Shown in pieces: positions 1,461 to 17,348 of a DNA stretch of 64,000 nt. Where the stretch lies: positions 1 through 64,000 of IMG/VR virus record IMGVR_UViG_3300047545_000339. One strand, 5' to 3'. Under the pieces are notes generated by a model. It had not been told where the DNA came from. It did no database searches and saw only the letters and a list, made by a program, of their open reading frames with translations. The first letter of the stretch is position 1. Every line of letters starts with the position of its first letter. The translations under genes and the position numbers were made by a program. The DNA is from a virus. Lineage: Duplodnaviria > Caudoviricetes.

Positions 1461-2282
1461 ATGAAAAAGTTTCACTTTTTGAGCGGTCTTCCACGATCTG
1501 GTTCCACTCTATTATCTTCAATACTAAATCAAAATCCTGAAATTTATTCAGGTCCAAACTCCCCAATGTGTGGGATGATGTTTAATTTGGAAAGAAGCAT
1601 TCTTGCTTCAGAGCAGTACCGCTCATATCCAAAACCAGAAGTTCTTCCAGCAACGGTATGTGGAGTGCTTGATAATTATTATTCTGATAGAGAAGAAGAA
1701 GTAATTATTGACAAGTCAAGAGAATGGTCAATCCAAGAACATTTCGGGGTACTTTTAAGAAACCTTCCTTATGATCCCAAAGTAATTCTTACAGTAAGAG
1801 ATATCAAAGATATACTTGCATCATTTATCTATATGGTGAATCAGAATCCACAACAGCCATCATTTATTGATCAAGAAATTCAGGCACGACAGGAATTCAA
1901 TTTTTACCGCCCAATTGATGATATTAGATGTGATCATCTTATGCGTCCAAAGGGATTGATTGACAATGCCCTGTATGGCATTGCTTATGCAATGCTGGAA
2001 GAAAATCGTGAATATTTCCATGTAGTGGAATATGATGATCTAATTAATAATACTCAAGAAACAATGGACGGTATATATGAGTTCCTTGGTTTACAGTCAT
2101 TTAACCATGATCTAAACAACATTGTAAATGTTGCACCAGAAGATGATCGTGTATATGGATTAAAGGGAATGCATGATGTTAGGTCATCAATATCTCCTCG
2201 CAGATTGCCAACAGAAGAAATACTTTCTCCATATGTATCAAGTAAGTATTCAGGACTAGAATTTTGGAGGGAAGTTGAGTAA
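1461..2282 (+). CDS. PAPS-dependent sulfotransferase, RaxST/TPST-like
   Basis: 5'-PSB motif FLSGLPRSGSTLL, then NQNP, DKSREW, 3'-PB motif VRDxxDxxxS, YDDL, IYEFL..F.HD, GMHDVR and a terminal EFW. Confidence 0.9.
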   Translation: MKKFHFLSGLPRSGSTLLSSILNQNPEIYSGPNSPMCGMMFNLERSILASEQYRSYPKPEVLPATVCGVLDNYYSDREEEVIIDKSREWSIQEHFGVLLRNLPYDPKVILTVRDIKDILASFIYMVNQNPQQPSFIDQEIQARQEFNFYRPIDDIRCDHLMRPKGLIDNALYGIAYAMLEENREYFHVVEYDDLINNTQETMDGIYEFLGLQSFNHDLNNIVNVAPEDDRVYGLKGMHDVRSSISPRRLPTEEILSPYVSSKYSGLEFWREVE

Positions 2283-2931
2283 GCCACATGTAAATGTTCT
2301 TATCTGTACCCCAGGAAGAATGATGGAGGCAGAATATGTCAAAAGCCTTGTAGCAACGCTAACTCATCTAAATAATAATGGAATTTCATACTTATACCTA
2401 AATGAATATTCTTCTCAAGTTAATGCTGCAAGAGAAGCAACTATTATGGGGTCTAGATTCTTAAGTGCATTTGCTACAGAGCCACTGTCTGGGGAAGTAA
2501 CATATGACAAGATAATTTGGATTGACTCAGATATTTCATGGAACGTAGAAGACTTCATGAAGTTATATGAATCTAGATATGACGTTGTATCTGGAATATA
2601 CTTCAATGAAGAGGGAGTTCCACTATTTACCTTTAAAGAAGATGATGTATATTTTGACAAAGAAAAACTAAAGCACAAAGAATACCCATTTGAAGTTTTT
2701 GGGGTAGGCTTTGGATTTGTGTCGATGAAGTCTGGTGTCTTTGAAAGTTGTAAAAGACCATGGTTTGAAACAGAATTTCAAAGAATTACAAATGAAGAAG
2801 GAAAAGAAATGTTTCTTCCTTGGGGAGAAGACTTTTCATGGTGCATTAAAGCACATGAGGCAGGGTACAAAATAATGCTTGACCCAAGTATTAGAGTAGG
2901 ACATCACAAGAAGATTAGGATTGCACTATGA
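2275..2931 (+). CDS. GT-A fold (GT2-like) glycosyltransferase
   Basis: WIDSD DxD motif, GVGFGF, GEDFSWC, C-terminal GHHK. TTG start preceded by GGAGG. Confidence 0.8.
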   Translation: MSKPHVNVLICTPGRMMEAEYVKSLVATLTHLNNNGISYLYLNEYSSQVNAAREATIMGSRFLSAFATEPLSGEVTYDKIIWIDSDISWNVEDFMKLYESRYDVVSGIYFNEEGVPLFTFKEDDVYFDKEKLKHKEYPFEVFGVGFGFVSMKSGVFESCKRPWFETEFQRITNEEGKEMFLPWGEDFSWCIKAHEAGYKIMLDPSIRVGHHKKIRIAL

Positions 2932-3611
2932 ATAAGCCACACTTTAATGTAGTATTTGCTACTCCAGGAAATTCATTCACGCCTGGATATGTAAGAAGTT
3001 TACTGCTATCTACAAATGCTCTAAATCAAGAAGGGCTTACCTGGAACTTTCTTAATCAGGGAGGATCTCTTGTAGCAATGGCTAGAGAGTCAACAATTGG
3101 TGGATACGATACAAACAATATTGACATGACTCAGCCATGCAGCGGTGATTTTACTTATGATATGATTATGTGGATTGATTCTGATATATCTTGGATGCCA
3201 TCAGATCTATTTGCTATCTATAATTCTAATAAAGACATTGTTGCAGGTTGTTACCTTATGGAAGATAGGCATATTCCTATTTATCAACAACCACGCGGTG
3301 GAATGATGCCAGAGCAATTACTTGATGATTATAAAAAGCCATTTAAGGTTGCTGGATGTGGATTTGGATTTATAGGAGTAAAGTCTGGGGTATTTGAAAA
3401 GATGCCTAGACCATGGTTTGGACCAGTTCCCATTGCATCTTTTGATGAAAAAACAGGGGAAAGAAAAGAAGACTTCATTCTTGTTGGAGAAGACCTGTCA
3501 TGGTGTACAAAGGCAATAAATTGTGGTTTTGATATTTGGGTTGATCCAGATGTTCGCGTTATTCATCAGAAAACATTTCCACTACCATTTATGTCACAAA
3601 TGAAAAAATGA
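2928..3611 (+). CDS. GT-A fold (GT2-like) glycosyltransferase, paralog of the preceding gene
   Basis: WIDSD, GCGFGF, KSGVFE, RPWF and GEDLSWC are shared with the upstream gene. ATGA overlap. Confidence 0.8.
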   Translation: MNKPHFNVVFATPGNSFTPGYVRSLLLSTNALNQEGLTWNFLNQGGSLVAMARESTIGGYDTNNIDMTQPCSGDFTYDMIMWIDSDISWMPSDLFAIYNSNKDIVAGCYLMEDRHIPIYQQPRGGMMPEQLLDDYKKPFKVAGCGFGFIGVKSGVFEKMPRPWFGPVPIASFDEKTGERKEDFILVGEDLSWCTKAINCGFDIWVDPDVRVIHQKTFPLPFMSQMKK

Positions 3612-4255
3612 AATCAATACCAACATTAATTATTCCAGTACTCAACAGATTTGATTTATTAGAAAATGCACTAGCATCTATTGACTACCCAGTTGATAAT
3701 ATCCTTGTTATAGATAATAGCAATACTTATAAAAACGATAGGGTAAATGTTCTAAATATGCCATCGAATATGGGGGTAGCTGGATCGTGGAATCTTGGAA
3801 TAAAATGCTACCCACATTCACCTTACTGGGTATTTATGGGAAGTGATGTTGAGTGGCTTCCAGGAACATTACAAAAGATATCTGTACTGAGTGGACCAGA
3901 AAGATTCTTGATCAGCAACTATGGATTCAATGCATTTTCTCTTGGGTCCTCTTTTATAAAAGATGTTGGACTATTTGACGAGAACTATTATCCTGCATAT
4001 TATGAAGATGAAGATTATGAGAATCGTGCAAGATATATGGGATTAGGAAATAAGATTCTTTATCCAGATATTCCAGTAAAAATTTATGATAGTTGCACAA
4101 CGGCAAAATCTGGCGGGTATCTAGAAAAGAAAAATAAAACAGATATATCTAATAAAAGATATTATGATAGTAAGTTTGCTAAAGATCCTTTAGAGTGCTA
4201 CAATTGGGAACTACAAAGACGTATAGATAATGATTGGATAGTCAATGAAAATTAA
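3608..4255 (+). CDS. GT2 glycosyltransferase
   Basis: IIPVLNR, VIDNS, NMGVAGSWNLG and GLFDENYYPAYYEDEDY. Confidence 0.85.
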   Translation: MKSIPTLIIPVLNRFDLLENALASIDYPVDNILVIDNSNTYKNDRVNVLNMPSNMGVAGSWNLGIKCYPHSPYWVFMGSDVEWLPGTLQKISVLSGPERFLISNYGFNAFSLGSSFIKDVGLFDENYYPAYYEDEDYENRARYMGLGNKILYPDIPVKIYDSCTTAKSGGYLEKKNKTDISNKRYYDSKFAKDPLECYNWELQRRIDNDWIVNEN

Positions 4256-4964
4256 GTTTGAGGCATTTGACAAAGAAACAGAAATTCTTTTTGATATACC
4301 AAAGCCTGCTGCACAATCTATTCCTCAATGGTATAAAGATATGCCAGTTAGGATGAATGGTGAAAAAGAAGATGGTCTAGCAAGAGATGGTGTTGCAGTA
4401 AGTAACCTTACTCTTAAGGGATGCTCACCATTTCTTGATGCTCTGACCTCTGGATATATGTTTACACTACCATTTGATCTTGAATTTAGAAAACACCCAG
4501 GTAAGGGAATCAACATTCGTTGGGCCACAAATATTAATGCAATAGGATCACATGGTCCAGATCAGGCTCCAGGACTACCAGCCCCATTTGATGGAAACGA
4601 AGATCTACTTAAGTGGAGGCCAGGATTTAGAGTCATTACCCCAAAGGGATATAGTTGTTTGTTTACGCACCCAACAAATAGACACGATCTTCCATTTAGA
4701 ACATTTTCGGGAGTAGTTGATACGGATACATACCCACTTGGAGTAGAGTTTCCATTTCAACTTCTTAATACTATTGACAAGGATATCTTTATTCTTGAAA
4801 AGGGTACCCCTATATGTCAGGTAATTCCATTCAAGAGGGAAGACTGGAGAAGTGAACAGGTTGCATTTGATGAAGATGCAAATAAAAAGAATGGCTTCAT
4901 ATTAAAGTCAAAGATCATCAGATCATATAAGACACAGTTTTGGAATAAAAAGAGTTACCTATAA
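4245..4964 (+). CDS. Conserved phage protein of unknown function, possibly a dUTPase-like beta fold
   Basis: IPQWYK, KGCSPFLDALTSGY, GVVDTD and KGTPICQVIPFKRE. I recall this family from aquatic phages; function unknown. Confidence 0.5.
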   Translation: MKIKFEAFDKETEILFDIPKPAAQSIPQWYKDMPVRMNGEKEDGLARDGVAVSNLTLKGCSPFLDALTSGYMFTLPFDLEFRKHPGKGINIRWATNINAIGSHGPDQAPGLPAPFDGNEDLLKWRPGFRVITPKGYSCLFTHPTNRHDLPFRTFSGVVDTDTYPLGVEFPFQLLNTIDKDIFILEKGTPICQVIPFKREDWRSEQVAFDEDANKKNGFILKSKIIRSYKTQFWNKKSYL

Positions 4965-4972
4965 GGAGACAA

Positions 4973-5932
4973 ATGGCTGACTGGCTACAAAGAAAATCAA
5001 CTGGAGATTCTAATGCTGTATTTGCAGCAAAGGGTGGAACTGAATTATTGAAAGAAGGATTAGAAAAGCATACTAATTTTAAAGAGTATGATAATATAAA
5101 TCTTTTAATATCTACCCCAAATCAAGATAAACTTAGATATACAAAGAAAAACGTTTTGTGGCAGCATCTTAATTATATTGATGAGTCTCTTGCCCCAATG
5201 AGAGATCCAGCATTTATGAAGGCTATTAATGCAACGGTATATGTATCTCATTGGCAGTTAGAAAAGTTTAGGTATTTATTTCAAGTACCACTTCACAATG
5301 CTCATGTTATCCGAAATGCAATTGAGCCGATTGAGTTTAAGCCAAAGTCTAAGGATGGAAAGCTAAAATTAATTTATACCTCCACACCATTTAGAGGTCT
5401 ATCAATTCTTCTAGATGTTTTTGAAATGTTGAATCGTGATGATATAGAATTAGAAGTCTATTCATCTACTGCTATCTATAGTTCAGGATATCAGGCAGCA
5501 TATGGAGATTTATACAAAGATCTTTTTGATCGTGCAAAGTCAATGAAAAACGTTAACTATCATGGATATGCAGAGAACAAAGATATTCACAAGGCACTAC
5601 AAGAGGCACATATTCTTGCATACCCCAGTATTTTTGAAGAAACTGCATGTCTTGCAATGATTGAGGCAGGGGCAGCAGGATGTTCTCTTGTTACAACAGA
5701 TCTTGGTGCATTGCCAGAAACAGGATCTATGTATGCCAACATGATGACAATTAAGTCGGATGAGAAAGACATTAAGGTTGCATATGCACAGCACCTAAAT
5801 CAAGCAATCAATGACTATTGGGATAAATCAAATCAAGAAATGCTAAGAGAGCAGTCAGACTTTTACAATAAATTTTATTCTTGGGAACGCAGAGCAAAAG
5901 AATGGAATGAGTTTTTTGAAGAAGTTTCTTAA
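4973..5932 (+). CDS. GT-B fold (GT4-like) glycosyltransferase
   Basis: GGTE, YTSTPFRGL and YPSIFEETACLAMIEAGAAG (EX7E motif), then GALPET. Confidence 0.88.
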   Translation: MADWLQRKSTGDSNAVFAAKGGTELLKEGLEKHTNFKEYDNINLLISTPNQDKLRYTKKNVLWQHLNYIDESLAPMRDPAFMKAINATVYVSHWQLEKFRYLFQVPLHNAHVIRNAIEPIEFKPKSKDGKLKLIYTSTPFRGLSILLDVFEMLNRDDIELEVYSSTAIYSSGYQAAYGDLYKDLFDRAKSMKNVNYHGYAENKDIHKALQEAHILAYPSIFEETACLAMIEAGAAGCSLVTTDLGALPETGSMYANMMTIKSDEKDIKVAYAQHLNQAINDYWDKSNQEMLREQSDFYNKFYSWERRAKEWNEFFEEVS

Positions 5933-6702
5933 TGATCGTTGATTGCACAATGTTCCACTGGGAGTTTGATCTTCTTGAAATAAGAATGAGAGAACTATGG
6001 GATGTTGTTGATTACTTTTATGTAACAGAGTCTGTATGCGACCATAGAGGAAATGACAGAGAACTAATTCTTTCTAAAAATATTGATAGGTTTGATTGGG
6101 CAAAAGAAAAACTGGTGGTTATCACATCTGATAAGCCAAAAGATGCTGTAACCTCTTGGGATTATGAAAGATATCAAAGATTAAGAAGCGTTAAGGCCTG
6201 CAAGAATATAGTCCAAGAAGATGATTTAATTTTAATATCAGATATTGATGAAATAATGAATGCTGAATCTGTTTTAAAGGCAGATAAAATTGGCGGTATA
6301 TTTACCATGAAAATGCCAATGTTTTATTATTATATGAATCTATATGTAGAAGACTGGAGTTATCCAAAAGCAATAACTTATAAGTATTTAGAAGATCCCA
6401 ATATTCTTAGATCAAGAGATCCAAACAGGACAGCCATAATAGAAAATGCAGGGTGGCACTTTAGTTACCTTGGAACACCAGATCAAATAAGTTATAAAAT
6501 AAAAACATTTGCCCATGACGAATATGACAAAAAAGACTTTACAGATGTTGACAAAATAATGGAAAGCATCTACAATAGAGAAGATATCTTTAAAAGATCA
6601 AGTAAAAAATTCATAACAGGGGGTATAGAAAATTTACCTCAATATGTATTACAAAATATAGATAAATATAACAATTTTATTTTAAGGAGTGAAAATGAGT
6701 AA
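5932..6702 (+). CDS. GT17 (MGAT3-like) N-acetylglucosaminyltransferase-family protein
   Basis: EFDLLEIRMREL, ERYQR, ISDIDEI, AGWHFSY and KIKTFAH. Confidence 0.85.
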   Translation: MIVDCTMFHWEFDLLEIRMRELWDVVDYFYVTESVCDHRGNDRELILSKNIDRFDWAKEKLVVITSDKPKDAVTSWDYERYQRLRSVKACKNIVQEDDLILISDIDEIMNAESVLKADKIGGIFTMKMPMFYYYMNLYVEDWSYPKAITYKYLEDPNILRSRDPNRTAIIENAGWHFSYLGTPDQISYKIKTFAHDEYDKKDFTDVDKIMESIYNREDIFKRSSKKFITGGIENLPQYVLQNIDKYNNFILRSENE

Positions 6703-7078
6703 TCCAAATATCACCATTTCAGGAAGAATTGGCACAGACATTGAAGCACGGAAAATGCCAGACGGTACACAAAAGGCAAAGTTTCGTATCATTACATCAG
6801 ATAGAAAGAAAAATGATAGAGGAGACTGGGAAGATTCTAATGTGTCTGGATGGACAATTGTCGCATGGGATAAATTAGCAGAAAAGTCAATTAGAAGCCT
6901 ATCTAAGGGAGATCTAATAACTGTTCAAGGACAAATAAAGGAAGTATCTTGGCTTGATCCAGATGGTAACAAAAAGAAGTCTACAGAAACCAGGGCATCA
7001 GAAATATCAGTTAATATCTATGGATTAAAAATAGAAGAAGATTCTATTCCAGAAAGAGATGACGAAATTCAGTGGTAA
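6695..7078 (+). CDS. ssb: Bacterial-type single-stranded DNA-binding protein
   Basis: ITISGRIG, AWDKLAE, LSKGD.ITVQG and an acidic tail (DDEIQW). AAGGAG precedes the ATG at 6695. Confidence 0.85.
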   Translation: MSNPNITISGRIGTDIEARKMPDGTQKAKFRIITSDRKKNDRGDWEDSNVSGWTIVAWDKLAEKSIRSLSKGDLITVQGQIKEVSWLDPDGNKKKSTETRASEISVNIYGLKIEEDSIPERDDEIQW

Positions 7079-8112
7079 ATATTGCAGTTTATACAATTGC
7101 AAAAAATGAATCACAATTTGTTGAGCGGTGGTATAACTCTGCAAAAGATGCTGACTATCTTTTTATATTGGATACAGGATCTTCAGATAATACAGCACAA
7201 GTTGCTAAGGATCTTGGGATAAATGTAAAAATACAATCCTTTGATCCTTGGCGCTTTGATGTTGCAAGAAATACAGCACTAAATTCTTTGCCAGAAAATA
7301 TTGATATGTGTATTGCTCTAGATATGGATGAAGTTCTTATTGAGGGATGGAGAGAGCAAATAGAAAAAGCAGTATCTAGTGGAGTTACCAGGCCACGATA
7401 TCAATATACTTGGTCTTGGAATGAAGATGGATCTCCAGGATTAGTTTATGGAGGGGATAAAATACACTCTAGGAATAATTATTTCTGGAAGCATCCTGTT
7501 CATGAGGTTTTAATGTGTTCTGATCAAGAAACTCAGGGGTGGTATGACATAGAAATCCATCACTACCCCGACAAAACAAAATCACGTTCTCAATATATGC
7601 CACTTCTAAAATTAGCGGTAGAAGAAGACCCAGAAGATGATCGTAATGCTTTTTACTATGCTAGAGAGTTGTTTTTCCATTCACGACTAGATGAGGCTGC
7701 CAAGGAGTTTAAAAGGCATCTATCACTTCCTAGGGCGGTATGGAAGCCAGAACGTGCTGCATCTATGAGATACCTTGCCAAAATACAAGATAAAGAGTCT
7801 TGGCTTTTAAGAGCAATTGCAGAATGCCCTGATAGAAGAGAGGCTATAGTAGAATTATCTCAATACTATTATGAGACTCGTCAATTTGAGTTATGTTATG
7901 CATATGCCGTAAGAGCATTGTCAATTAAAGAAAAGCCACTAGAGTATTTATGTGAGGACTTTGCTTGGGGGTATATCCCGTATGATCTAGCAGCAATTTC
8001 TGCCTATAATCTAGATATTAAAGATAAGGCCAGAGAATATGGTAGTAAGGCATTAGAATTAAACCCCAATAACATAAGGCTTTCAGTAAATATGGAATGG
8101 TATAATAAATGA
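7072..8112 (+). CDS. GT2 glycosyltransferase with C-terminal TPR domain (protein/peptide-glycosylating type)
   Basis: IAKNE, LDTGSSD, FDVARN, LDMDE and PVHE, followed by helical TPR-like repeats (FYYARE; KALELNPNN). Confidence 0.88.
   Translation: MVNIAVYTIAKNESQFVERWYNSAKDADYLFILDTGSSDNTAQVAKDLGINVKIQSFDPWRFDVARNTALNSLPENIDMCIALDMDEVLIEGWREQIEKAVSSGVTRPRYQYTWSWNEDGSPGLVYGGDKIHSRNNYFWKHPVHEVLMCSDQETQGWYDIEIHHYPDKTKSRSQYMPLLKLAVEEDPEDDRNAFYYARELFFHSRLDEAAKEFKRHLSLPRAVWKPERAASMRYLAKIQDKESWLLRAIAECPDRREAIVELSQYYYETRQFELCYAYAVRALSIKEKPLEYLCEDFAWGYIPYDLAAISAYNLDIKDKAREYGSKALELNPNNIRLSVNMEWYNK
8098..8106 (+). promoter_or_regulatory. Extended -10 promoter TGGTATAAT
   Basis: Lies in the last codons of the upstream gene, followed by an AAGGTGA RBS and the ATG at 8126. 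Confidence 0.7.
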
Positions 8113-8125
8113 AGGTGATTATTAG

Positions 8126-8485
8126 ATGAGTTTTCCTGCTACGTTCAATATTAGATATTACAAGGGTGATTTTTATCAGTTTGTCATAAGACCAAAAACT
8201 TCCACGGGAGATCCATTTCCAATATCTGATACAACACATGATGCATATTTTTATATTTCTTCCTCAAGAGGAGGAAACTCATCTTCTACAATTCAGGCTT
8301 CAGCACAAATAGATAATGGAAATGTTGTTGCAACAATTCTTCCATCTATAGGAAATCAGTTGAGTCAATCAACTACATATTTTTACGATGTTTCTGTTGA
8401 AAAGAAAGAAGATAACACAGAACTCTATACCCTAGTTACTGGAAGCATATCTGTTACTGCTGACATTACGGGGCCAGGAGCATGA
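8126..8485 (+). CDS. Small beta-rich virion structural protein (putative)
   Basis: GD at the N-terminus, YFYDV and GSISVTADIT form an Ig/BppU-like pattern. Located in the fibre region. Confidence 0.5.
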   Translation: MSFPATFNIRYYKGDFYQFVIRPKTSTGDPFPISDTTHDAYFYISSSRGGNSSSTIQASAQIDNGNVVATILPSIGNQLSQSTTYFYDVSVEKKEDNTELYTLVTGSISVTADITGPGA

Positions 8486-9054
8486 CCGCTGTATTTGATG
8501 TTTTAGTTGAAACTGATGACATCGTTGTTCTTGGTCCACCAACAAGCATAGATTTATCCTTAGATGTAGGACCAAAGGGTGATAGGGGTTCAAGGTTTTT
8601 TGTTGGCTCTGGAAATCCAAATCTTTCTGGAGTAATTCCTTCAGGACAGGTTCCAGCAGTTGGAGATGTTTTTGTAAATTCTTCTACGGCATCTGAGTAT
8701 GGATGGTTGTATCTTTATATCAGTACCCCATCTGGAAATTCTTGGGTTCCAGCATTAAGACTACAGCCTTCAATTTATTCTACAAACGTAGGAATATTAT
8801 TTAATTCAAGTGGCGAAGGAACAATAACGATTCCAATTGCTAACATTGTTGCAGACGTAACTATTTTAGATGTAGAAAAATATGTTAGTCAAGTTACTGC
8901 AATTAATTCTAATCCTGTGGCACTCTCAATTACCTCAAAATCAATTCTTGGACCCAATCTAAATATTTTTGTCAAGGGTATAGAGTACTCTGGATCTTCT
9001 TGGTCAAACCTAGAAGGTATTATTGATTTAGAAGTAACCATTTCAGTGATATAA
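8482..9054 (+). CDS. Putative minor tail/fibre protein
   Basis: Short collagen triplet run GPKGDRG, then FVGSGNP...GDVFVN. ATGA coupling to the upstream gene. Confidence 0.5.
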   Translation: MTAVFDVLVETDDIVVLGPPTSIDLSLDVGPKGDRGSRFFVGSGNPNLSGVIPSGQVPAVGDVFVNSSTASEYGWLYLYISTPSGNSWVPALRLQPSIYSTNVGILFNSSGEGTITIPIANIVADVTILDVEKYVSQVTAINSNPVALSITSKSILGPNLNIFVKGIEYSGSSWSNLEGIIDLEVTISVI

Positions 9055-9055
9055 T
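9047..9055 (+). promoter_or_regulatory. Extended -10 promoter TGATATAAT
   Basis: Includes the TAA stop of the upstream gene; lies 16 nt before the ATG at 9072. Confidence 0.65.
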
Positions 9056-9071
9056 GAGAATGGTGATATAA

Positions 9072-9857
9072 ATGTCTCAACCTATAGGATTAAACTTCAG
9101 AACCAGAATACCAACATTTTCTGACGATGCATCTATTGAAGAAGCACTAAAGGTATACCACTATGGAGTAGATAACTACTCTAGTCAGGCAATTCCAGAA
9201 GATAGCATTGAAGGACACTTCACAGCTCTTCAAAGTAGAATTGCTGCAGCAGAATTTTCACTTTCTCAACTATCAGAGACATTTATTGAAGAGGTTTCTT
9301 CAGCAACAGATCCAAACGAAATAACTCCTGCTAATGCAGGAATTGTTCCACTTACAATAAAGGCGGCAGCAAATCAGACTGCGGCTCTTCAAAGGTGGCA
9401 AAATAATTCTTCAGTAAACCTCGTCAGTATATTCCCTAATGGTGGAGCATCTTTTGCAAACTATGTTTCGATAGGAGACATTGCTCAAACAGTATCAAAT
9501 GTTTTAAATATTCAAGTTGGAAACTCATCACATATAGGCATTGTTATAAAAGGTGCTGCTAGCCAATCTGCCAATCTACAAGAATGGCAAAACTCGTCTG
9601 GCTCTATTTTAGCAAGGGTAAATAGTTCTGGAACAATGTTCTCAAATAACGTTGAGGTTGTTACCGTATCTCAATCACAGACAATTACAAATAAAACATT
9701 AACAAGTCCAACTATAAATGGTGGATCTATAGTAAATGGTTCTTCAATAACTCTATCTGGAGCACAGGATAATTCATCAAGAGTAAGAAATATTACTTTT
9801 TCTACCCTAGACCCAAGCGGTGGAAATGATGGAGATCTCTGGGTCAAGTATATATAA
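9072..9857 (+). CDS. Tail fibre shaft protein
   Basis: Coiled coil, repeated Q(T/S)AxLQxWQN, QTITNKTLTSPTI and C-terminal GNDGDLWVKY. Confidence 0.65.
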   Translation: MSQPIGLNFRTRIPTFSDDASIEEALKVYHYGVDNYSSQAIPEDSIEGHFTALQSRIAAAEFSLSQLSETFIEEVSSATDPNEITPANAGIVPLTIKAAANQTAALQRWQNNSSVNLVSIFPNGGASFANYVSIGDIAQTVSNVLNIQVGNSSHIGIVIKGAASQSANLQEWQNSSGSILARVNSSGTMFSNNVEVVTVSQSQTITNKTLTSPTINGGSIVNGSSITLSGAQDNSSRVRNITFSTLDPSGGNDGDLWVKYI

Positions 9858-10516
9858 TGTCTGCAATTAGGGTTAACAATGCATGGAAAACCCCAGGAAC
9901 AGTATATGCAAGAGTATCTGGAGAGTGGAAGATTGTTGGTCAAACATTTTCAAAAGTAAATGGTATATGGAGAACAACAACCTTTGGCGCTCCACCAAGT
10001 AAGCCAATAATGAATTGGTACTCTACTGGAGTATTTGAAATAACTAATTATGACTCTAGTCTAGTATATGAGGCACAATTTGTTAGTGGTTCTGGATCTG
10101 CGTCCTTAAATACTTCTAATGGTAGATATACCTTAAATGGAGTAAATTCTGCATTTAATGTTGTTGCTAGATACGGAGTAGGAGCACCAGCATCTGAGTC
10201 AGGGTATATGGAAAGAAAAGCAAGAACTACCAAATATGTTCAAACTGGTGTAAACTGTTATGGCACAAACTGTGTTCCAAATAGAGTTGCCACATGCAAT
10301 GAACCACCATTCACTCCTGGATATTGCTGTACAGAATGTCCAGCACCTTCATATGATGGTCAGAATAGATGTATTTGTTGGAGTAAGGGTCTTCCAGATC
10401 CTTTGTGTTATGGACAACAGTGTGATCCAGTTTTTGGATATGTTGATGACGCACAGTGGGGAGGATCTCCATATTTTTATACAGATAGAGGAACAGAATG
10501 GAGCAAACAATCATGA
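9857..10516 (+). CDS. Fibre-tip protein with a 10-cysteine C-terminal domain
   Basis: Three N-terminal (R/K)VxxxW(K/R) hairpins; 10 Cys in aa 134-189. Confidence 0.6.
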   Translation: MSAIRVNNAWKTPGTVYARVSGEWKIVGQTFSKVNGIWRTTTFGAPPSKPIMNWYSTGVFEITNYDSSLVYEAQFVSGSGSASLNTSNGRYTLNGVNSAFNVVARYGVGAPASESGYMERKARTTKYVQTGVNCYGTNCVPNRVATCNEPPFTPGYCCTECPAPSYDGQNRCICWSKGLPDPLCYGQQCDPVFGYVDDAQWGGSPYFYTDRGTEWSKQS

Positions 10517-11049
10517 CAGTATACTTGTATAGAGATAATGAACCATTTATCTCTTATCCATTACCATTTGATAAAGATATACAAAAATTTCAAGAATTAA
10601 AAATAAGAAATATTTTGATATCATTAAATAAAGAAAAAATTTATAATCAAATAGGTATGGGAGAAAAAGAGATTTCTATATCAAAAAGGGGCTTATGGTA
10701 CGCGGAAATAGAAGATGGTAGTTTTTTTGAATTAAAAAATGGTGAACACGAGTTATCAGTTCAAATTTTTGATATGGATGGAAATGAAATAGTAAACAAT
10801 AAAACAATACTTACCATTTATGATAAACAAGAGGATAGAAAAGATGAAGATGGACACGAAGATGTTACACCACTAGACCTACTTAGTTCAAAGAATTATA
10901 CAACAAAAGAAATAAGAAATGAACGCTTTAATATATGTAAGGCGTGCCCAAGATTGTTTAAGCCAACAAGAACCTGTAAGGAATGTGGATGTTTTATGGC
11001 TGCAAAGACTTGGTTAAAGGAAGCATCCTGTCCAATAGGAAAGTGGTAA
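10513..11049 (+). CDS. Hypothetical protein with a C-terminal 6-Cys domain (DUF6171-like pattern)
   Basis: RFNICKAC...CKECGCFM..KT.L..ASCPIGKW. ATGA overlap favours a start at 10513. Confidence 0.65.
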   Translation: MTVYLYRDNEPFISYPLPFDKDIQKFQELKIRNILISLNKEKIYNQIGMGEKEISISKRGLWYAEIEDGSFFELKNGEHELSVQIFDMDGNEIVNNKTILTIYDKQEDRKDEDGHEDVTPLDLLSSKNYTTKEIRNERFNICKACPRLFKPTRTCKECGCFMAAKTWLKEASCPIGKW

Positions 11050-11058
11050 TGATATAAT
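11050..11058 (+). promoter_or_regulatory. Extended -10 promoter TGATATAAT, predicted leaderless
   Basis: Directly follows the upstream stop; 6 nt before the ATG at 11065; no SD. Confidence 0.75.
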
Positions 11059-11064
11059 AAGATT

Positions 11065-12348
11065 ATGGCTAGTGGAAGAACTACTAATTTTAATTTTCCA
11101 TATCCATTTTCTACAGATCCAGTAAATGTTTCTGGAGACATAGAGCAACTTGCAGTATCTCTAGATACATTTTTAGAAGAAAATGTGACACAAGAGTCTG
11201 CTGCAAATACTTTATATGTGTCTAAAGATGGAAATGATAATAATAGTGGAACCTCCCTTTCTGATGCCTTTTTAACTATTCGTGCTGCTGCTGCTAATGC
11301 TGTTGCAGGAACGACTATTTTTGTTAAAAGCGGAGACTATACAGAAAATAATCCAGTAACTATTCCAGCAAGGGTAGCCATAGTGGGAGACAATCTTAGA
11401 ACTGTTACGGTTCGACCAGCAAATAGAACAGCAGACATATTTTATGTAAATAATGGATGTTTTGTAACTGGAATAACTTTTAGAGATCATTTATCTCCTG
11501 CCGCTGCATTCGCTTTTAATCCAGATGGATCTGCTGGAAATATATTTACTAGTCCATATATCCAAGATTGCTCATCAATTACAACTACTGGTAAGGGAAT
11601 GTATGTTGATGGATCTGTTGTTGGAGGACAAAGATCTATGGTTCTTGATGCATACACACAGTTTAACGAGGGCGGCATAGGAATTCATATTGATAATGAT
11701 GGATATGCTCAACTCGTAAGCATATTTACAATCTGTTGTGAAGTTGGAGTTTTATGTACTAATGGTGGATATTGCTCTGTAACAAACTCAAACTCATCCT
11801 TTGGAACTTATGGATTAAAGGCAGATGGAGTAGGTCCAGTAAAACTTACTGGGGCAACGAATAGAACAGATCAAGTAGGAACAGAAATAGTTATTGATGG
11901 GCTTGCTGCTAGACCAGCAGTAGGCAACGTTGTATCTTTTGATGGAGGAACTGTATTTTATACTGTCGCTTCAACCACACCTCTATCAAATACTCAAACA
12001 ACTGTAACACTTATAGAAGAGGTAGAAACTCCACTGCCAATTGACACACCAGCAACGTTTCATGCTAGAAGTTTTATATCAACATCTGGACATACATTTG
12101 AGTATGTTGGTGCAGGTAATATCTTGGCTCAGGCACTACCAGAAACTGGAGGAGTTCCTATCCAAGAAAACGAAGTAGTTGAAGAAAACGGTGGAAAGGT
12201 TTTCTATACAAGTACAGACCAGTGGGGCGATTTTAGAATAGGTGGAGACCTAACAATTAATCGCGCAGATGGTACAATTACAGGTAGGACTTTTGACAGA
12301 AGTCTTTTTGCTGTCTTAACTCCTTACATTTTGGCGATTGAGGGATAA
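11065..12348 (+). CDS. Pectin-lyase-like beta-helix virion protein
   Basis: LYVSKDGNDNNSG...FLTIRAA, IFVKSGDY, IVGDNLR and SPYIQDCS. Confidence 0.7.
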   Translation: MASGRTTNFNFPYPFSTDPVNVSGDIEQLAVSLDTFLEENVTQESAANTLYVSKDGNDNNSGTSLSDAFLTIRAAAANAVAGTTIFVKSGDYTENNPVTIPARVAIVGDNLRTVTVRPANRTADIFYVNNGCFVTGITFRDHLSPAAAFAFNPDGSAGNIFTSPYIQDCSSITTTGKGMYVDGSVVGGQRSMVLDAYTQFNEGGIGIHIDNDGYAQLVSIFTICCEVGVLCTNGGYCSVTNSNSSFGTYGLKADGVGPVKLTGATNRTDQVGTEIVIDGLAARPAVGNVVSFDGGTVFYTVASTTPLSNTQTTVTLIEEVETPLPIDTPATFHARSFISTSGHTFEYVGAGNILAQALPETGGVPIQENEVVEENGGKVFYTSTDQWGDFRIGGDLTINRADGTITGRTFDRSLFAVLTPYILAIEG

Positions 12349-12350
12349 TT

Positions 12351-12686
12351 ATGGCTACAGTACCATTGAATGCGTTTAAAACAGTTACGGCAAATCTAAC
12401 AACATCTATGACAGATGTTTATACTGCCCCAGCAGGAGTGTCATCTATTATTTTGACTGCTCAAATAGCCAACGTTACAAGCACATCTGGAAGTGCTACT
12501 TTTGCACATGTTTCTGGATCTACAGTCACAGAACTAATCAAAGACTATGAGATTCCTGGAAATGATGCTGCATCAGCAACAACTGGAAAGTTAGTTCTTG
12601 AATCAGGTCAAAAAATTAGGGTGGCAGCAAATACTTCAAATAAAATGAAATTAACGCTAAGTATCCTTGAGTCGGCAAATGAGTAA
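12351..12686 (+). CDS. Small virion structural protein
   Basis: VYTAPAG, AQIANV, KLVLESG and LSILESAN pattern, typical of phage fibre-associated proteins. Confidence 0.55.
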
Positions 12687-15303
12687 AATATTATCTGGAA
12701 AACAAAAAGTAAAGTCTCCTACAGAAGTATCGGAAGACAGATATAATTTTTTAAGTCTTTCTGAAGCAGAGCCAAATTTAGGTGCTCCACTATCCTCAAG
12801 TGCTGTTTTAATATCTGATACTCAGGGTACTAGACTGTGGGTAGAAAACGTTAGCCTTATCGGATCAACTGGACCCACTGGTCCAGCAGGACCCACAGGA
12901 CCATTCGGTGCCCCAGGTGCCCCAGGAGTTGGAATTAGAATCTTGGGATCATACGATACATTACAAGACTTAATAGATAATCAGCCTACAGGACAGGTTG
13001 GAGATGGATTTTTAGTAGGACAAAACCTATATGTATGGAGTAGCATAGAAAGTACTTGGGTCTTGGCTGGTCAAGTTCAGGGTCCAACAGGTCCAACAGG
13101 CCCAACAGGTCCTACGGGTCCAACTGGACCAAAAGGAGATGACTCTTTTGTCACGGGTCCAACTGGCCCTACTGGAGCAACTGGAGCAGATTCTACAGTA
13201 ACAGGTCCAACAGGACCAACAGGACCAACTGGGCCAATTGGAGATACTGGTCCAGTCGGGGCAGCATCTACAGTAACTGGTCCAACTGGTCCAACAGGAG
13301 CGGCAGGGTATTCATCAACATACTTTGAATATCAAGCAAAAACAACATTGAACTCTGGAGATCCAGGAAACGGCTTTATTATTTGGAGCAACTTAAGCCA
13401 AACATCTTCAACACAATTAAACATTAGTCATTTAAATGGCCAAGGAATAGATATAGATCAATTCTTGTCTATACTAAAACAATATGATAAATTAATTATT
13501 CAGGATAAGAATAATTCAAACAACTATCAAGAATGGCAGGTCTCTGGTCAGCCAACAGAAACATTAACATATGCTCAAATACCAGTAACAATAGTAAGTT
13601 CTGAAGGAACTGGAACAACTGGATTTTCTAATAATCAAAATATTATTCTTGCTACTGTAAGTATAGGAGCCACTGGCCCAACTGGTCCAACTGGTGCTAC
13701 TGGTGCAACAGGTCCATCTGTGACAGGACCAACAGGACCAACAGGGGCAACTGGCCCAACTGGTCCCATAGGAGATGAGTATCAAACATCAAGCACAACA
13801 GGTTTAACCATTGGTGCTGGTACTAAAACATTAACGGTAGACGTAGAACTTGCATATAGTGCAGGACAATATGTAGTGGTTTTTTACGATTCTAGTAACT
13901 CAATGGCTGGAGAAATAACTTCCTATAATAGTTCTACTGGTGAATTAGTTTTTGTTTCTAGTGTTTTTGAAGGATCTGGATCTTATTCAATATGGTCAGT
14001 AAATCTTTCTGGAGTTCAAGGACCAACTGGACCTACTGGTGCCACTGGTCCATCAGTAACTGGACCAACTGGTCCTACTGGAGCAACAGGGCCACAAGGA
14101 GACATAACAAAGGTAATTAGAAAGCAGGTAACTGGACCATATACCTTGCTACAGGAGGATGCTGGCAAGATAATAGAGGTAACATCTTCTTCTGCAACAA
14201 CAATAACTATTCCAAACAGTAGTGAATCAAGCATTAGTGTGGATTCAACATTTGATATTGTTCAATATGGGGATGGTCAAGTAACAATATTGCCTAATAA
14301 TATTGAGCCAACATGGACTACTATGACTATAGATGCGTCGTCTGGATATGAAGATATTATTTACTCAAATTCTCAATGGGTTGTAACGGCTGGTTCATTT
14401 GCTCCTCAAGGAATATTTAGTTCCACAGACTCTATTACATGGACAAGCAATACATATCCAACAGCATTTAACAGATATACAGATATAGCATACGGAGATA
14501 GCAAATATCTCCTAGCAATAAGATTTGACAATGAGTTAAGATCTTCAACAGATCTAAACACATGGACAACTACAACTTCAACCTTTGCTCCATCAACAAC
14601 CATCTGGTCTATTGCTTATGGAAATGGCTTATGGGCAATTGCTGGATCTTATGGACAAATTGCTTCATCAACAGATTCAATAACCTGGACAACTCAGTCA
14701 TTCTTTTCTTATAATACAAATAATGAAGTAAGATCTATTTACCACGGTAACGATACTTGGGTACTAGGAGGAAAGTCTGGTTCTGGATCTGTAAATGGAG
14801 TAATAGCATATTCTACAGATGCTGTAACTTGGACCACATCATTATCATCAGTTAACAATATAACCTCTGTATTTTATGGAGGAAATATGTGGGTCGCTGG
14901 AGGATATTATCAATCAATATTTACTTCTACAGATGCCATAACATGGACTACAGCAACAGTTCCTTCTGGAACTTCATTGATAAAATCTATTACATATTCT
15001 GGATCAAACTGGTATGCAACTGGTGGATATTCTCTGTATAGGTCAACAGACACCGTAACTTGGACTACATCTTTTGACTCTCCAAGTGGACAAAGCATAA
15101 ACTCTATTTCTAGCAACGCCCTAGGAAATATTATTTCTGTAGGAACAAACGCATTGGCTAGATCTTATGATGAAAATAATTTATTATCGGTTACGGTAAG
15201 ATCTAAAAATAATGCACTAAAGTTGTCTTCACAATATTCCGCTGTAACTTTATACAAAAGAGATGAAGAAGAATGGGTTGCAATAGGAGATCTCGAAGAA
15301 TAA
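12679..15303 (+). CDS. Collagen-like (Gly-Pro-Thr) fibre with beta-propeller
   Basis: Four GPT/GAT triplet blocks and repeated STDxxTWT Asp-box blades. ATG at 12679 overlaps the upstream gene end. Confidence 0.85.
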
Positions 15304-15392: not shown

Positions 15393-17348
15393 ATGTCATT
15401 TATTGATGAGAATGGATCAATTTCAGATCCATATAGAAACTTCATTCATGTTTCACGATATGCAAGATGGATTGAAGATAAAAACAGAAGAGAAACTTGG
15501 GTGGAAACAGTTGATCGATATATAAACTTTATGAAAAATCATTTAGTTGAAGATTATAATTATGAAAAAGATAATATTATTTTTTCTCAAGTAAAAGATG
15601 CAATTATTCAACATAAGATAATGCCCTCTATGCGTGCTTTAATGACCGCAGGACCAGCATTAGAAAGAGATAATATCGCAGCATACAATTGTTCTTTTAT
15701 CGCGGTAGATAGCCTTAGATCCTTTGATGAGGCCATGTATATTCTTATGAATGGAACAGGAGTAGGATTTTCTGTTGAGCAGAAGTATGTTAATAGTCTT
15801 CCTATTATTGCAGAGGAGTTTTATCCAACAAACACAACAATCGTTGTTGAGGATAGCAAGCTAGGATGGGCAAAATCATACAAAGAACTTATTGGACTTC
15901 TTTCTATGGGACAAATTCCAAACTGGGATATGTCTAAAGTTAGACCAGCGGGGGCACGGTTAAAGACCTTTGGTGGAAGAGCATCTGGACCAGAACCCCT
16001 ACATGCACTATTTCAGTTTACCGTAGATATTTTTAGAAGAGCAGCAGGACGTAGACTTAAGCCAATTGAGGCACACGATATTATGTGTAAAATTGGAGAG
16101 GTTGTTGTTGTAGGAGGGGTGCGTCGCTCTGCCTTGATCTCGTTATCAAACCTTGATGACTTTGAAATGGCAAAGGCAAAGAGTGGAAATTGGTGGGAAT
16201 CAGAAGGACAGCGTGCTCTAGCAAATAATTCAGCAGTATATAACGCAAAGCCAAATACTGCACAGTTCCTCCGTGAATGGAGAAATCTTTATGAGTCAAA
16301 ATCAGGAGAACGTGGAATCTATAATATGGATTCAGTTCGTAAGCATATTGATAAGTTTGATCGTCGTGACTCAAGCAAGGTAGTTGGAACTAATCCATGT
16401 GGAGAAATTCTTCTTCGTGCAAATGAATTTTGTAACCTTACTGAGGTAGTAATTGAAGCCTCAGACACTGTTGAAGATTTATCAGAAAAGATTAGATTAG
16501 CTACAATTCTTGGTACATGGCAGTCAACACTTACAAACTTTAAATATATTCGTAAATCCTGGAAGGATAATTGTGAAGAAGAAAGACTTCTTGGAGTGTC
16601 TCTAACAGGAATTTTTGGCAACAAGATTACTGCAACAAATGGAGAAAAGTTAGCAGGAATTCTTGATGCACTTAGAGAAGAGGCAGTTATGACAAATGCT
16701 AAAGAAGCAGATAAGCTTGGGATTAACCATTCTGCTTCCATTACTTGTGTTAAGCCATCTGGAACTGTTTCACAGCTAACAGGAGTATCAAGTGGAATTC
16801 ATCCATGGTATTCTCCATATTATTTGCGCTCAGTTCGTGGAGACAACAAAGATCCTCTAACAACATTCTTAAAGGAATCTGGTGTTCCAAATGAACCAGA
16901 TGTTATGAAGCCAAATGACACAACAGTATTTTATTTTCCAATTAAAGCACCAAAGGGTGCTGTTGTAACTAAGGACTTAACTGCTGTTGATCATCTAGAG
17001 ATGTGGAAGACATATCGTGAGCATTGGACAGAGCATAATCCATCAGTAACCGTAAACATTCATGAAGATGAATGGTTGCGTGTAGGCGCTTGGGTGTATG
17101 ATAATTTTGACAATGTTGGTGGAGTATCTTTTCTTCCTGCATCAGAACACACATATAAGCAAGCACCATATCAAGAAATTACAAAAGAAGAGTATGAAGA
17201 GTGGATAAAGAAGATGCCATCCAGAATAGACTGGAATATGATAACATTATATGAGACAGAGGACGGGACCACAGGAAGCCAAGAATTGTCATGTACTGCT
17301 GGCGTTTGTGAGATCGTAGACATTACCACCTCTGTGGCAACCGCCTAA
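15393..17348 (+). CDS. nrdJ: Class II adenosylcobalamin-dependent ribonucleotide reductase (monomeric RTPR type)
   Basis: YNCSF, GTGVGF, GGVRRSA, GTNPCGE, TCVKPSGT and C-terminal CTAGVC. No nrdB nearby. Confidence 0.95.
   Translation: MSFIDENGSISDPYRNFIHVSRYARWIEDKNRRETWVETVDRYINFMKNHLVEDYNYEKDNIIFSQVKDAIIQHKIMPSMRALMTAGPALERDNIAAYNCSFIAVDSLRSFDEAMYILMNGTGVGFSVEQKYVNSLPIIAEEFYPTNTTIVVEDSKLGWAKSYKELIGLLSMGQIPNWDMSKVRPAGARLKTFGGRASGPEPLHALFQFTVDIFRRAAGRRLKPIEAHDIMCKIGEVVVVGGVRRSALISLSNLDDFEMAKAKSGNWWESEGQRALANNSAVYNAKPNTAQFLREWRNLYESKSGERGIYNMDSVRKHIDKFDRRDSSKVVGTNPCGEILLRANEFCNLTEVVIEASDTVEDLSEKIRLATILGTWQSTLTNFKYIRKSWKDNCEEERLLGVSLTGIFGNKITATNGEKLAGILDALREEAVMTNAKEADKLGINHSASITCVKPSGTVSQLTGVSSGIHPWYSPYYLRSVRGDNKDPLTTFLKESGVPNEPDVMKPNDTTVFYFPIKAPKGAVVTKDLTAVDHLEMWKTYREHWTEHNPSVTVNIHEDEWLRVGAWVYDNFDNVGGVSFLPASEHTYKQAPYQEITKEEYEEWIKKMPSRIDWNMITLYETEDGTTGSQELSCTAGVCEIVDITTSVATA

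Follow-up and report, generated by a model that had tools for sequence, protein, structure and literature searches.

A putative tail-fibre glycosylation gene cluster with two separable modules in a predicted actinobacteriophage

Introduction

To our knowledge, glycosylation of virion proteins has so far been shown in tailed phages only for a few mycobacteriophages, on the capsid and the tail tube. In the part of Freeman et al. (2023) relayed by PMC12619734, mycobacteriophages of the Che8/Corndog/Myrna type carry glycans on capsid and tail-tube C-termini and encode few glycosyltransferases (GTs), and the part of Pyle (2024) relayed there concerns metagenomic 5-hydroxymethylcytosine (5hmC) glycosylation systems, again with phage-encoded GTs. 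Outside the phages, the C. difficile enzyme SgtA, a protein of 358 aa comprising a GT-A domain and four tetratricopeptide repeats (TPRs), has its gene beside bclA3 and attaches beta-O-GlcNAc to Thr residues of collagen repeats (PMC7157674). The literature on freshwater actinophages consulted here reads phage GTs as devices for DNA protection or superinfection exclusion, and not as enzymes of fibre modification (PMC10202952). Here we analyse a cluster of GT genes and a sulfotransferase gene at positions 1461-8112 of the first 64 kb (hereafter, the window) of IMGVR_UViG_3300047545_000339, a linear IMG/VR virus record of 101,213 bp with a CheckV completeness of 94%.

Virus-encoded sets of several GTs also decorate the surfaces of giant viruses (Mimivirus fibrils, the chlorovirus capsid), in which collagen-like proteins are present, and a small viral GT-A, STIV A197, is suspected of modifying a capsid protein, although its function is unproven. 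Against this background, we consider it fairly likely, from gene content and synteny, that the enzymes of the cluster glycosylate, and probably sulfate, the tail fibres of the phage itself in the cytoplasm, and that they do so by means of two separable modules: a multi-enzyme module A, which accompanies the propeller-repeat fibre gene fibA, and a module B, in which a single GT-A/TPR enzyme (GT2-TPR) is associated with collagen-like fibres.

Results

A co-directional string of enzyme and fibre genes

Between positions 33 and 15303 the window holds 18 genes, all on the + strand and either overlapping or separated by gaps of at most 21 bp. From fibA to the collagen-like fibre they form a single co-directional, operon-like string, with the cluster inside it:

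3-1439, + strand: fibA, beta-propeller repeat fibre protein, 5' end cut by the contig start (translation)
1461-2282, + strand: sulfotransferase of the 3'-phosphoadenosine 5'-phosphosulfate (PAPS) type, module A (PF13469, PF00685, phrog_27463)
2275-2931, + strand: GT-A a, A197-like, module A (phrog_1574 at 9e-54; profile against 2c0n)
2928-3611, + strand: GT-A b, paralogue of GT-A a, core of module A (phrog_1574; 41% identity to GT-A a)
3608-4255, + strand: GT2, variable member of module A (PF00535, phrog_29879)
4245-4964, + strand: DUF6065/phrog_7084 protein with a predicted dUTPase/dCTP-deaminase-like fold, usually in module A (AlphaFold 2 (AF2) model, structure searches)
4973-5932, + strand: GT4 (GT-B fold), core of module A (PF00534, PF13692, phrog_2170)
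5932-6702, + strand: GT17 catalytic domain, lineage-specific addition (PF04724)
6689-7078, + strand: single-strand DNA-binding protein (SSB), probably a passenger (PF00436, 70 bits, 2.5e-19)
7072-8112, + strand: GT2-TPR (GT-A plus TPR), module B (profile against the PDB, AF2/Foldseek)
8126-12686, + strand: seven tail-fibre-module genes (PHROG tail-fibre matches), namely a phrog_1084 gene; 8482-9054; 9072-9857; a Cys-rich protein, 9857-10516; a DUF6171 protein, 10498-11049; a tail fibre, 11065-12348; and 12351-12686
12667-15303, + strand: collagen-like tail fibre of 878 aa (PF01391 at 4e-12; many PHROG tail-fibre families)

The boundaries of the open reading frames (ORFs) at 1461-8112 were identical to those used in an earlier, sequence-only reading of this DNA. 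That reading had listed a sulfotransferase, three GT-A/GT2 enzymes (resolved here into two A197-like GT-As and one GT2), one enzyme each of GT4 and GT17, and a GT2-TPR, all of which were borne out by profile or fold matches, and it had missed the DUF6065 protein and the SSB. It had also placed fibre genes on both sides of the cluster, and these are indeed present, with fibA upstream (3-1439) and tail-fibre genes downstream (9072-15303). The enzymes of the cluster contained no transmembrane-like or hydrophobic segment in a sequence scan and look soluble, and the cluster string was found to hold no flippase, polymerase or lipid-carrier priming transferase. Gene identities, enzyme solubility, operon-like packing and the two-way synteny described below are established, and the gene content is real and non-random. 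For comparison we used about 100 related phage fragments, all of them IMG/VR contigs with L- or G-numbers. When the cluster was compared by megablast with 50,697 deposited phage records, no match was returned; the nearest deposited relative of any cluster gene is the freshwater 'Actinomycetia phage DSL-LC01' (PMC10611076).

fibA is accompanied by module A

The fibA protein is made up of blades of about 39 aa with the motif STxGSTWTT...YGNGLWVAGG, and 28% of its residues are Ser or Thr. Its structural matches were weak, the best being the designed propeller Ika8 (2.5e-5) and Ycf48 (0.003). The first base of the contig falls within the repeats of fibA, and bases 1-20 occur again at position 240. 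The assembly was probably interrupted in this repeat array, and the N-terminal part of fibA is missing. We rejected the possibility that the start of fibA lies at the other contig end through circular permutation, as the 3' end is not crossed by any open frame and the contig lacks a terminal repeat.

A search with only fibA as the query recovered 33 loci. In 23 of these the sequence extends beyond fibA (at least 45% identity), and in every one of the 23 module A genes lie directly beside it; a further seven stop at fibA, and three distant loci (29-40% identity) are without the module. The fibA-linked module occurs in at least eight gene arrangements. GT4 and GT-A b are present in all 23 loci, the DUF6065 gene is usual, and the sulfotransferase and GT-A a are frequent. 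Other members appear only sometimes, namely a GT2, a GT-B (a homologue of the window phage's gene at 78214-79305) and a putative methyltransferase (79310-79906). Among the fibA-linked loci, GT17 is confined to the lineage of the window, and GT2-TPR was found only in L220 and L236/238. Separately, a fibA-like protein of 40% identity is encoded on L250, a contig of the giant-virus metagenome-assembled genome (MAG) bin GVMAG-M-3300023184-29 in IMG/VR, with no module A genes nearby.

Two relatives separate the modules. G002, a phage of 160 kb that is 100% complete and has few other genes in common with the window's phage, carries six fibA paralogues interleaved with module A, and lacks both GT2-TPR and collagen repeats. 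The sister contig L002/L248 is the closest relative of the cluster, with a module 76-89% identical to the window's; its syntenic fibre block contains neither GT2-TPR nor collagen, and has an Mtd-type receptor-binding gene instead. In both, the sulfotransferase/GT set therefore sits beside fibA with no GT2-TPR, and most GT2-TPR loci conversely lack the rest of the enzyme set. The idea that GT2-TPR initiates a glycan which the other enzymes extend was thus abandoned: GT2-TPR cannot be the obligatory initiator of the whole set, because G002 has module A and six fibA genes with no GT2-TPR and no collagen. In light of this double dissociation in G002 and L002/L248, we divided what had been read as a single pathway into two modules.

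GT2-TPR resembles protein glycosyltransferases and is associated with collagen-like fibres

As a single sequence, GT2-TPR scored 22.1 bits against PF00535, just below the cut-off of 23.3. When a profile built from 21 homologues was searched against the PDB, it matched GmaR (3.5e-12), SunS (6.8e-10) and ThuS (1.5e-8), while positions 181-344 matched consensus TPR proteins (3.6e-19). The AF2 model (pLDDT 94) contains 11 helices after residue 172. In Foldseek searches SunS and ThuS matched across both domains (E 1e-16, TMq 0.6), and the best polysaccharide GT-As, at 1e-7, were nine orders of magnitude behind. By profile and model, GT2-TPR resembles a glycosyltransferase of the protein/peptide type.

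The collagen-like fibre at 12667-15303 has a (G-P-T)n repeat arranged in GPT/GAT blocks. There are 33 triplets in runs of at least six, with Thr at the Y position in 21 of them, and the C-terminal domain is a fibA-type propeller, 40% identical to fibA, which makes this fibre a candidate substrate for both modules. More broadly, we recovered 69 IMG/VR loci with GT2-TPR, in which the gene lies at the edge of a structural module; in about 40 of the 69 a collagen-like ORF lies no more than 10 kb away, often adjoining, and Thr is the most frequent Y residue in nearly all of these collagen ORFs.

A reverse test used 46 IMG/VR records picked only by a (GPT)5 DNA pattern and, as a control that gives a crude base rate, 48 records picked by an arbitrary 16-mer. 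Full-length GT2-TPR (E <=1e-107) was present in 8 of the 46 and in none of the 48 control records (Fisher p = 0.002), and in three of the seven (GPT)5 records that were at least 90% complete. In seven of the eight positive records the collagen gene lies one to six genes from GT2-TPR on the same strand, and the GT2-TPRs of these records are 41-61% identical to the window's. The association of GT2-TPR with collagen is in part a lineage trait. By analogy with SgtA, we propose that GT2-TPR glycosylates Thr residues of the G-P/A-T collagen stalk.

SunS and ThuS are S-glycosyltransferases, so Cys may be the acceptor in place of Thr. Small Cys-rich or DUF6171 ORFs recur near GT2-TPR or module A (9857-11049 in the window, 9752-10000 in L052 and 5206-5451 in L009) and, given the Cys specificity of SunS and ThuS, are alternative acceptor candidates. 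A wider version of this view would have the cluster act on other virion or small-peptide targets, either the capsid and tail tube or, through S-glycosylation, Cys-rich proteins of the fibre tip, with fibA and the collagen stalk not being acceptors. It gains from the recurrence of these ORFs near GT2-TPR, from the position of the GT4 and GT2 genes downstream of the protease and capsid genes in L056, and from the glycans on mycobacteriophage capsid and tail-tube C-termini described in the portion of Freeman 2023 relayed in PMC12619734. However, the tightest and most general adjacency, across many rearrangements, is to fibA (23/23) and to GXT collagen genes, and the capsid genes lie about 15 kb away in the window, which leaves such targets distinctly improbable.

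The host envelope offers a further set of targets. Here the enzymes would act, during infection, on a glycopolymer in the cell wall of the actinobacterial host, which they would remodel and sulfate, either masking the receptor (superinfection exclusion) or preventing progeny from adhering to debris, and a shared host glycan would explain the adjacency to receptor-binding genes. In known temperate phages, genes that modify the receptor do track and co-vary with receptor-binding proteins. The GT4, GT2 and GT25 families are typical of polysaccharide synthesis, and a neighbouring 1450-aa protein (described below) carries carbohydrate-binding domains, so that host glycans are probably the receptor; the freshwater-actinophage literature, moreover, offers a reading of this kind for phage GTs (PMC10202952). 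Against it stand the lack of a flippase, polymerase, priming transferase or membrane segment in the cluster, the far closer kinship of GT2-TPR to protein/peptide than to polysaccharide glycosyltransferases, its linkage to a type of collagen stalk and not to the receptor-binding head, and the packing of the genes within the late structural string. We therefore regard envelope modification as unlikely, and continue with the fibres as the preferred targets.

The sulfotransferase and its sulfate supply

The sulfotransferase (1461-2282) scored 58.0 bits against PF13469 (cut-off 27; 2.2e-15), 45.2 bits against PF00685 (cut-off 22; 1e-11) and matched phrog_27463 at 2e-80. PAPS-binding enzymes are defined by a PKSGTT-like loop for the 5'-phosphosulfate and an R..D...S motif for the 3'-phosphate. 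The translation contains both, as LPRSGST at residues 10-16 (5'-PSB loop) and, for the 3'-PB motif RDxxDxxxS, as VRDIKDILAS. Among deposited phages, it matched only the Synechococcus phages S-SKS1, S-SRM01 and S-SCSM1, where the homologues are annotated 'sulfotransferase', together with marine single-cell virus contigs; in the PDB, neither the sulfotransferase nor GT17 had sequence relatives. Family membership alone cannot separate a sugar from tyrosine as the sulfated target.

We rejected a PAPS supply encoded by the phage itself, as no adenosine 5'-phosphosulfate (APS) kinase was found in the genome; PAPS must then come from the host. In a second, DSL-LC01-like lineage (L018-L020, L025-L026), GT2-TPR is immediately preceded by an APS kinase gene (3.5e-17) and a weak sulfotransferase-like ORF, in loci that also hold an A197-like GT-A. 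Judging from these genes, the loci would hold a phage-encoded PAPS supply adjoining a fibre glycosyltransferase, which suggests that sulfation is part of fibre modification more widely. A metallophosphoesterase-like ORF was also seen beside the sulfotransferase-like ORF and the APS kinase in these contigs (L019 7162-9795; also L018, L020, L025 and L026).

Other glycosyltransferases of module A

A profile of the two paralogous A197-like GT-As matched STIV A197 (PDB 2c0n) modestly, at E 2.2e-5 across the DXD region, and residues D84-S-D86, E185-D186 and H210 are invariant in 10 sequences. Homologues of these phrog_1574 GT-As were found in 96 records of deposited phages, all of them marine Synechococcus/Prochlorococcus cyanophages. 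The GT2 (3608-4255) scored 33 bits against PF00535 (cut-off 23.3; 7e-8) and matched phrog_29879, 'galactosyl transferase', at 1.6e-31, and the GT4 (4973-5932) scored 44.3 bits against PF00534 (cut-off 26.4; 1.8e-11) and 40.5 bits against PF13692 (cut-off 27; 4e-10).

GT17 (5932-6702) matched positions 75-300 of the 348-position PF04724 profile with 95.4 bits (cut-off 26; 4.6e-27), and its translation contains a DID motif. The protein has neither the type II membrane anchor nor the stem found in the eukaryotic Golgi enzymes (maximum KD19 0.85); from its sequence, this is a soluble form comprising the catalytic domain only. It is 58% identical to its counterpart in L002/L248, where the neighbouring genes are 76-89% identical. 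The earlier remark that a GT17 is unusual in a phage proved apt, with one match among the 50,697 deposited records (a 642-kb uncultured phage, 24% identity) and none among PHROG families. We nevertheless obtained 119 metagenomic protein matches, about 66 of them at 47% identity or more; GT17 is rare in catalogued phages and common in this uncultured group. In L003, GT17 is followed by an NAD-dependent epimerase/dehydratase just ahead of the fibre genes.

Two DNA- or nucleotide-type genes inside the cluster

The AF2 model of the DUF6065 protein (4245-4964; pLDDT 82) was closest to dUTPases in a VIA search (Z 9.4-8.6). The top 22 matches were all dUTPases or dCTP deaminases (Z 9.4-4.9), the first unrelated fold came at Z 4.2, and Foldseek concurred. 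The protein nevertheless failed the family test, with no PF00692 match anywhere in the genome at E <=0.1; by the same search the genome has no canonical dUTPase. Of the five dUTPase motifs, only a III-like GVVDTDxY and a IV-like PICQ are visible in the consensus, and the C-terminus is helical. The protein has 590 metagenomic homologues. Its gene lies among GT genes in most fibA-linked loci and adjoins GT2-TPR in L046 (twice) and in L052. In the haloarchaeal virus HRTV-8 a homologue sits between the tail module and a ribonucleotide reductase (RNR) gene, without any GT. Because of this homologue, and the lack of a canonical dUTPase in the genome, the modelled protein may be a hitch-hiking nucleotide enzyme. 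We rejected a 2-oxoglutarate (2OG) oxygenase or prolyl/lysyl hydroxylase that would prepare the collagen, since the fold is dUTPase-like and not of the cupin/double-stranded beta-helix type.

The SSB gene overlaps GT17 on one side and GT2-TPR on the other. Apart from the window, only L002/L248 and L221 have an SSB in this position, and the G002 homologue lies far from module A; from this distribution, the SSB is probably a passenger.

These two genes bear on a third interpretation, in which the GTs would add sugars to modified DNA bases as a protection from restriction, and the SSB and the dUTPase-fold protein would belong to the pathway. In its favour, both genes lie inside the cluster, the genome has no canonical dUTPase, and phage GTs are classically read as DNA-modifying (PMC12619734, PMC10202952). 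The sequence-only reading had noted that no nucleotide-modification genes lie beside the cluster. This holds for a ThyA-type hydroxymethylase (dCMP/dUMP), for which PF00303 gave no match in the 94%-complete genome, with a control that was positive in 10 of 14 genomes; ThyX is encoded. It does not hold for the overlooked SSB and dUTPase-fold genes. Besides the missing hydroxymethylase, the scattered occurrence of the SSB speaks against DNA as the target, as do the TPR domain and the SunS/GmaR kinship, which indicate a polypeptide acceptor, and the location of the enzymes amid fibre genes, outside the replication module at 54-62 kb. We also know of no role for a sulfotransferase in DNA modification. 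Taken together, these points leave DNA hypermodification with very little probability.

Genomic surroundings

The genome of this uncultured freshwater virus has the appearance of a long-tailed phage. The genes for the portal, the protease and the major capsid protein lie at 22-26 kb, a tape-measure protein of 3701 aa is encoded, and a DNA polymerase III alpha gene is found at 58 kb. Its GC content is about 36%. A WhiB-family gene outside the window (72335-72508) scored above the Pfam cut-off, on which basis we take the phage to be an actinobacteriophage. No tRNA genes were found in the window, an NCBIfam search gave sub-threshold matches only, and a promoter/terminator scan performed no better than on shuffled sequence.

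In the tail-fibre module downstream of the cluster, the gene at 11065-12348 matches phrog_17885 at 4.5e-96, and the genes at 8126-12686 are syntenic downstream of GT2-TPR in L012. An RNR gene (15393-17348; phrog_367, 6e-193) lies between the tail-fibre and head genes, an adjacency of fibre and RNR genes also seen in relatives and in HRTV-8. The 1450-aa ORF (17425-21777), just upstream of the portal gene, carries a CBM_4_9 module and a ConA-like lectin domain, and its homologues occupy the same position in many related contigs. It stands where a terminase would be expected and was rejected as one on account of these domains; the large terminase was not located.

Beyond the window, the WhiB-like gene is followed directly by a PF11397 gene (72335-73796 for the pair; also in L219/L081). 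The PF11397 protein (72867-73796; 2e-58) is GT60-like, from a family of polypeptide/hydroxyproline GlcNAc-transferases, and a GT25 protein is encoded at 74416-75054. Both belong to families that include polypeptide or collagen glycosyltransferases, and by family membership we counted them as favouring modification of fibres. The pair of GT-B (78214-79305) and putative methyltransferase (79310-79906) genes joins module A in G002. At 76701-77351 (L081 12701-13351) the genome encodes a heme oxygenase (PF01126, 2.8e-31), the product of an auxiliary gene better known from cyanophages.

Discussion

Taken together, the linkage to fibre genes in dozens of contigs, the soluble enzymes and a GT2-TPR of the protein type agree with the earlier proposal of a virion glycan, although not with the single pathway that it envisaged. 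In the mechanism we favour, the cluster would be expressed late and the fibres modified in the cytoplasm before assembly. The TPR domain of module B's GT2-TPR would hold the repetitive fibre polypeptide while its catalytic domain places the first sugar on Thr, most likely at the Y position of the G-P/A-T stalk of 12667-15303. Module A, composed of a core of GT4 and one A197-like GT-A, usually with DUF6065, often with the sulfotransferase, sometimes with GT2 and here also with GT17, would build an oligosaccharide on the Ser/Thr-rich propeller domain of fibA-type receptor-binding proteins, which in this phage would be fibA and the propeller head of the collagen fibre. The sulfotransferase would then sulfate the oligosaccharide with host PAPS. 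We infer the substrates, acceptor residues, sugars, sulfation target and order of steps from genes and their neighbourhoods.

Several observations weigh against this mechanism. The case for fibre glycosylation is built from genes and synteny, and enzymes altering a host receptor glycan would give the same synteny. The co-occurrence is partly driven by lineage, with most loci coming from one freshwater phage group and several being near-duplicates. About 25 of the GT2-TPR loci have no collagen ORF in the available sequence, some of them having short flanks. The S-glycosyltransferase activity of SunS and ThuS, and the small Cys-rich proteins encoded nearby (9857-11049), point to another acceptor. 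In addition, an SSB and a dUTPase-fold protein are DNA/nucleotide-type genes inside the cluster, the genome has no APS kinase, so that sulfation relies on host PAPS, and the contig is 94% complete with a truncated fibA.

A bolder generalisation is that these genes form mobile substrate-plus-enzyme cassettes in abundant freshwater actinophages. fibA would always travel with a GT4/GT-A set that coats it in a variable, sometimes sulfated glycan (the optional members being the sulfotransferase, methyltransferase, GT2 and GT17), and an SgtA-like enzyme would glycosylate collagen Thr, replacing hydroxyproline as the stabiliser of the triple helix. We put this forward tentatively, as a possibility short of an even chance. 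If it is true, glycan diversity on receptor-binding proteins would be a new axis in the evolution of host range and defence evasion, and these would be the first sulfated phage virions.

If the more restricted account of two fibre-modifying modules is correct, two dedicated sets of enzymes would glycosylate the receptor-binding fibres of widespread, mostly uncultured freshwater actinophages. One would mirror the BclA/SgtA pair of spores; the other has a sulfotransferase, to which some relatives add an APS kinase. The annotation of phage GTs in these genomes would change, and the Thr-rich collagen repeats of phage fibres would gain a rationale. The enzyme-substrate pairs are compact and soluble, and hence directly testable in E. 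coli.

Among described systems, GmaR, the O-GlcNAc transferase of Listeria flagellin, and the glycocin enzymes SunS and ThuS are the best sequence relatives of GT2-TPR, and SunS and ThuS are also its best structural matches. All are cytoplasmic GTs that recognise a polypeptide via a helical repeat domain; they differ in their substrates, flagellin and bacteriocin peptides, and share only 14-18% identity with GT2-TPR. STIV A197 resembles both paralogous GT-As in its DXD-containing core, but comes from an archaeal virus, and the similarity is confined to about 90 residues. The clusters of giant viruses likewise combine a host-independent multi-GT set with collagen-like proteins, and a fibA-like protein lies on the giant-virus MAG contig L250. 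The giant viruses infect eukaryotes and make their own nucleotide sugars, whereas here only the relative L003 carries an epimerase/dehydratase. T4 alpha/beta-GT and the 5hmC systems share with this phage the encoding of GTs, sometimes several per genome. DNA glucosylation, however, needs a hydroxymethylase and sits with nucleotide-metabolism genes; here no hydroxymethylase was found, and the GTs lie in a fibre operon that includes a TPR domain of the polypeptide-binding type.

Two further parallels are the mycobacteriophages and the SgtA-BclA3 pair. As in the former, GTs encoded by an actinobacteriophage would, as predicted here from genes, modify its own virion proteins in the cytoplasm; the portion of the mycobacteriophage work relayed in PMC12619734 reports no sulfotransferase, GT17 or TPR enzyme, and here synteny indicates fibres. 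No Mycobacterium phages were among the tblastn matches of GT2-TPR, the sulfotransferase, the GT-As or DUF6065. With SgtA-BclA3, and with Bacillus BclA, the locus shares an enzyme of about 350 aa, with a GT-A domain and C-terminal TPRs, encoded beside a collagen-like G-X-T fibre gene, a likeness drawn from the architecture as described in PMC7157674. It differs in having an actinophage tail fibre as the putative substrate and in possessing an additional module of several enzymes, the sulfotransferase among them. Against the background of mycobacteriophage virion glycosylation and BclA/SgtA, the gene content suggests that what sets this locus apart is its probable fibre targets, together with the sulfotransferase module.

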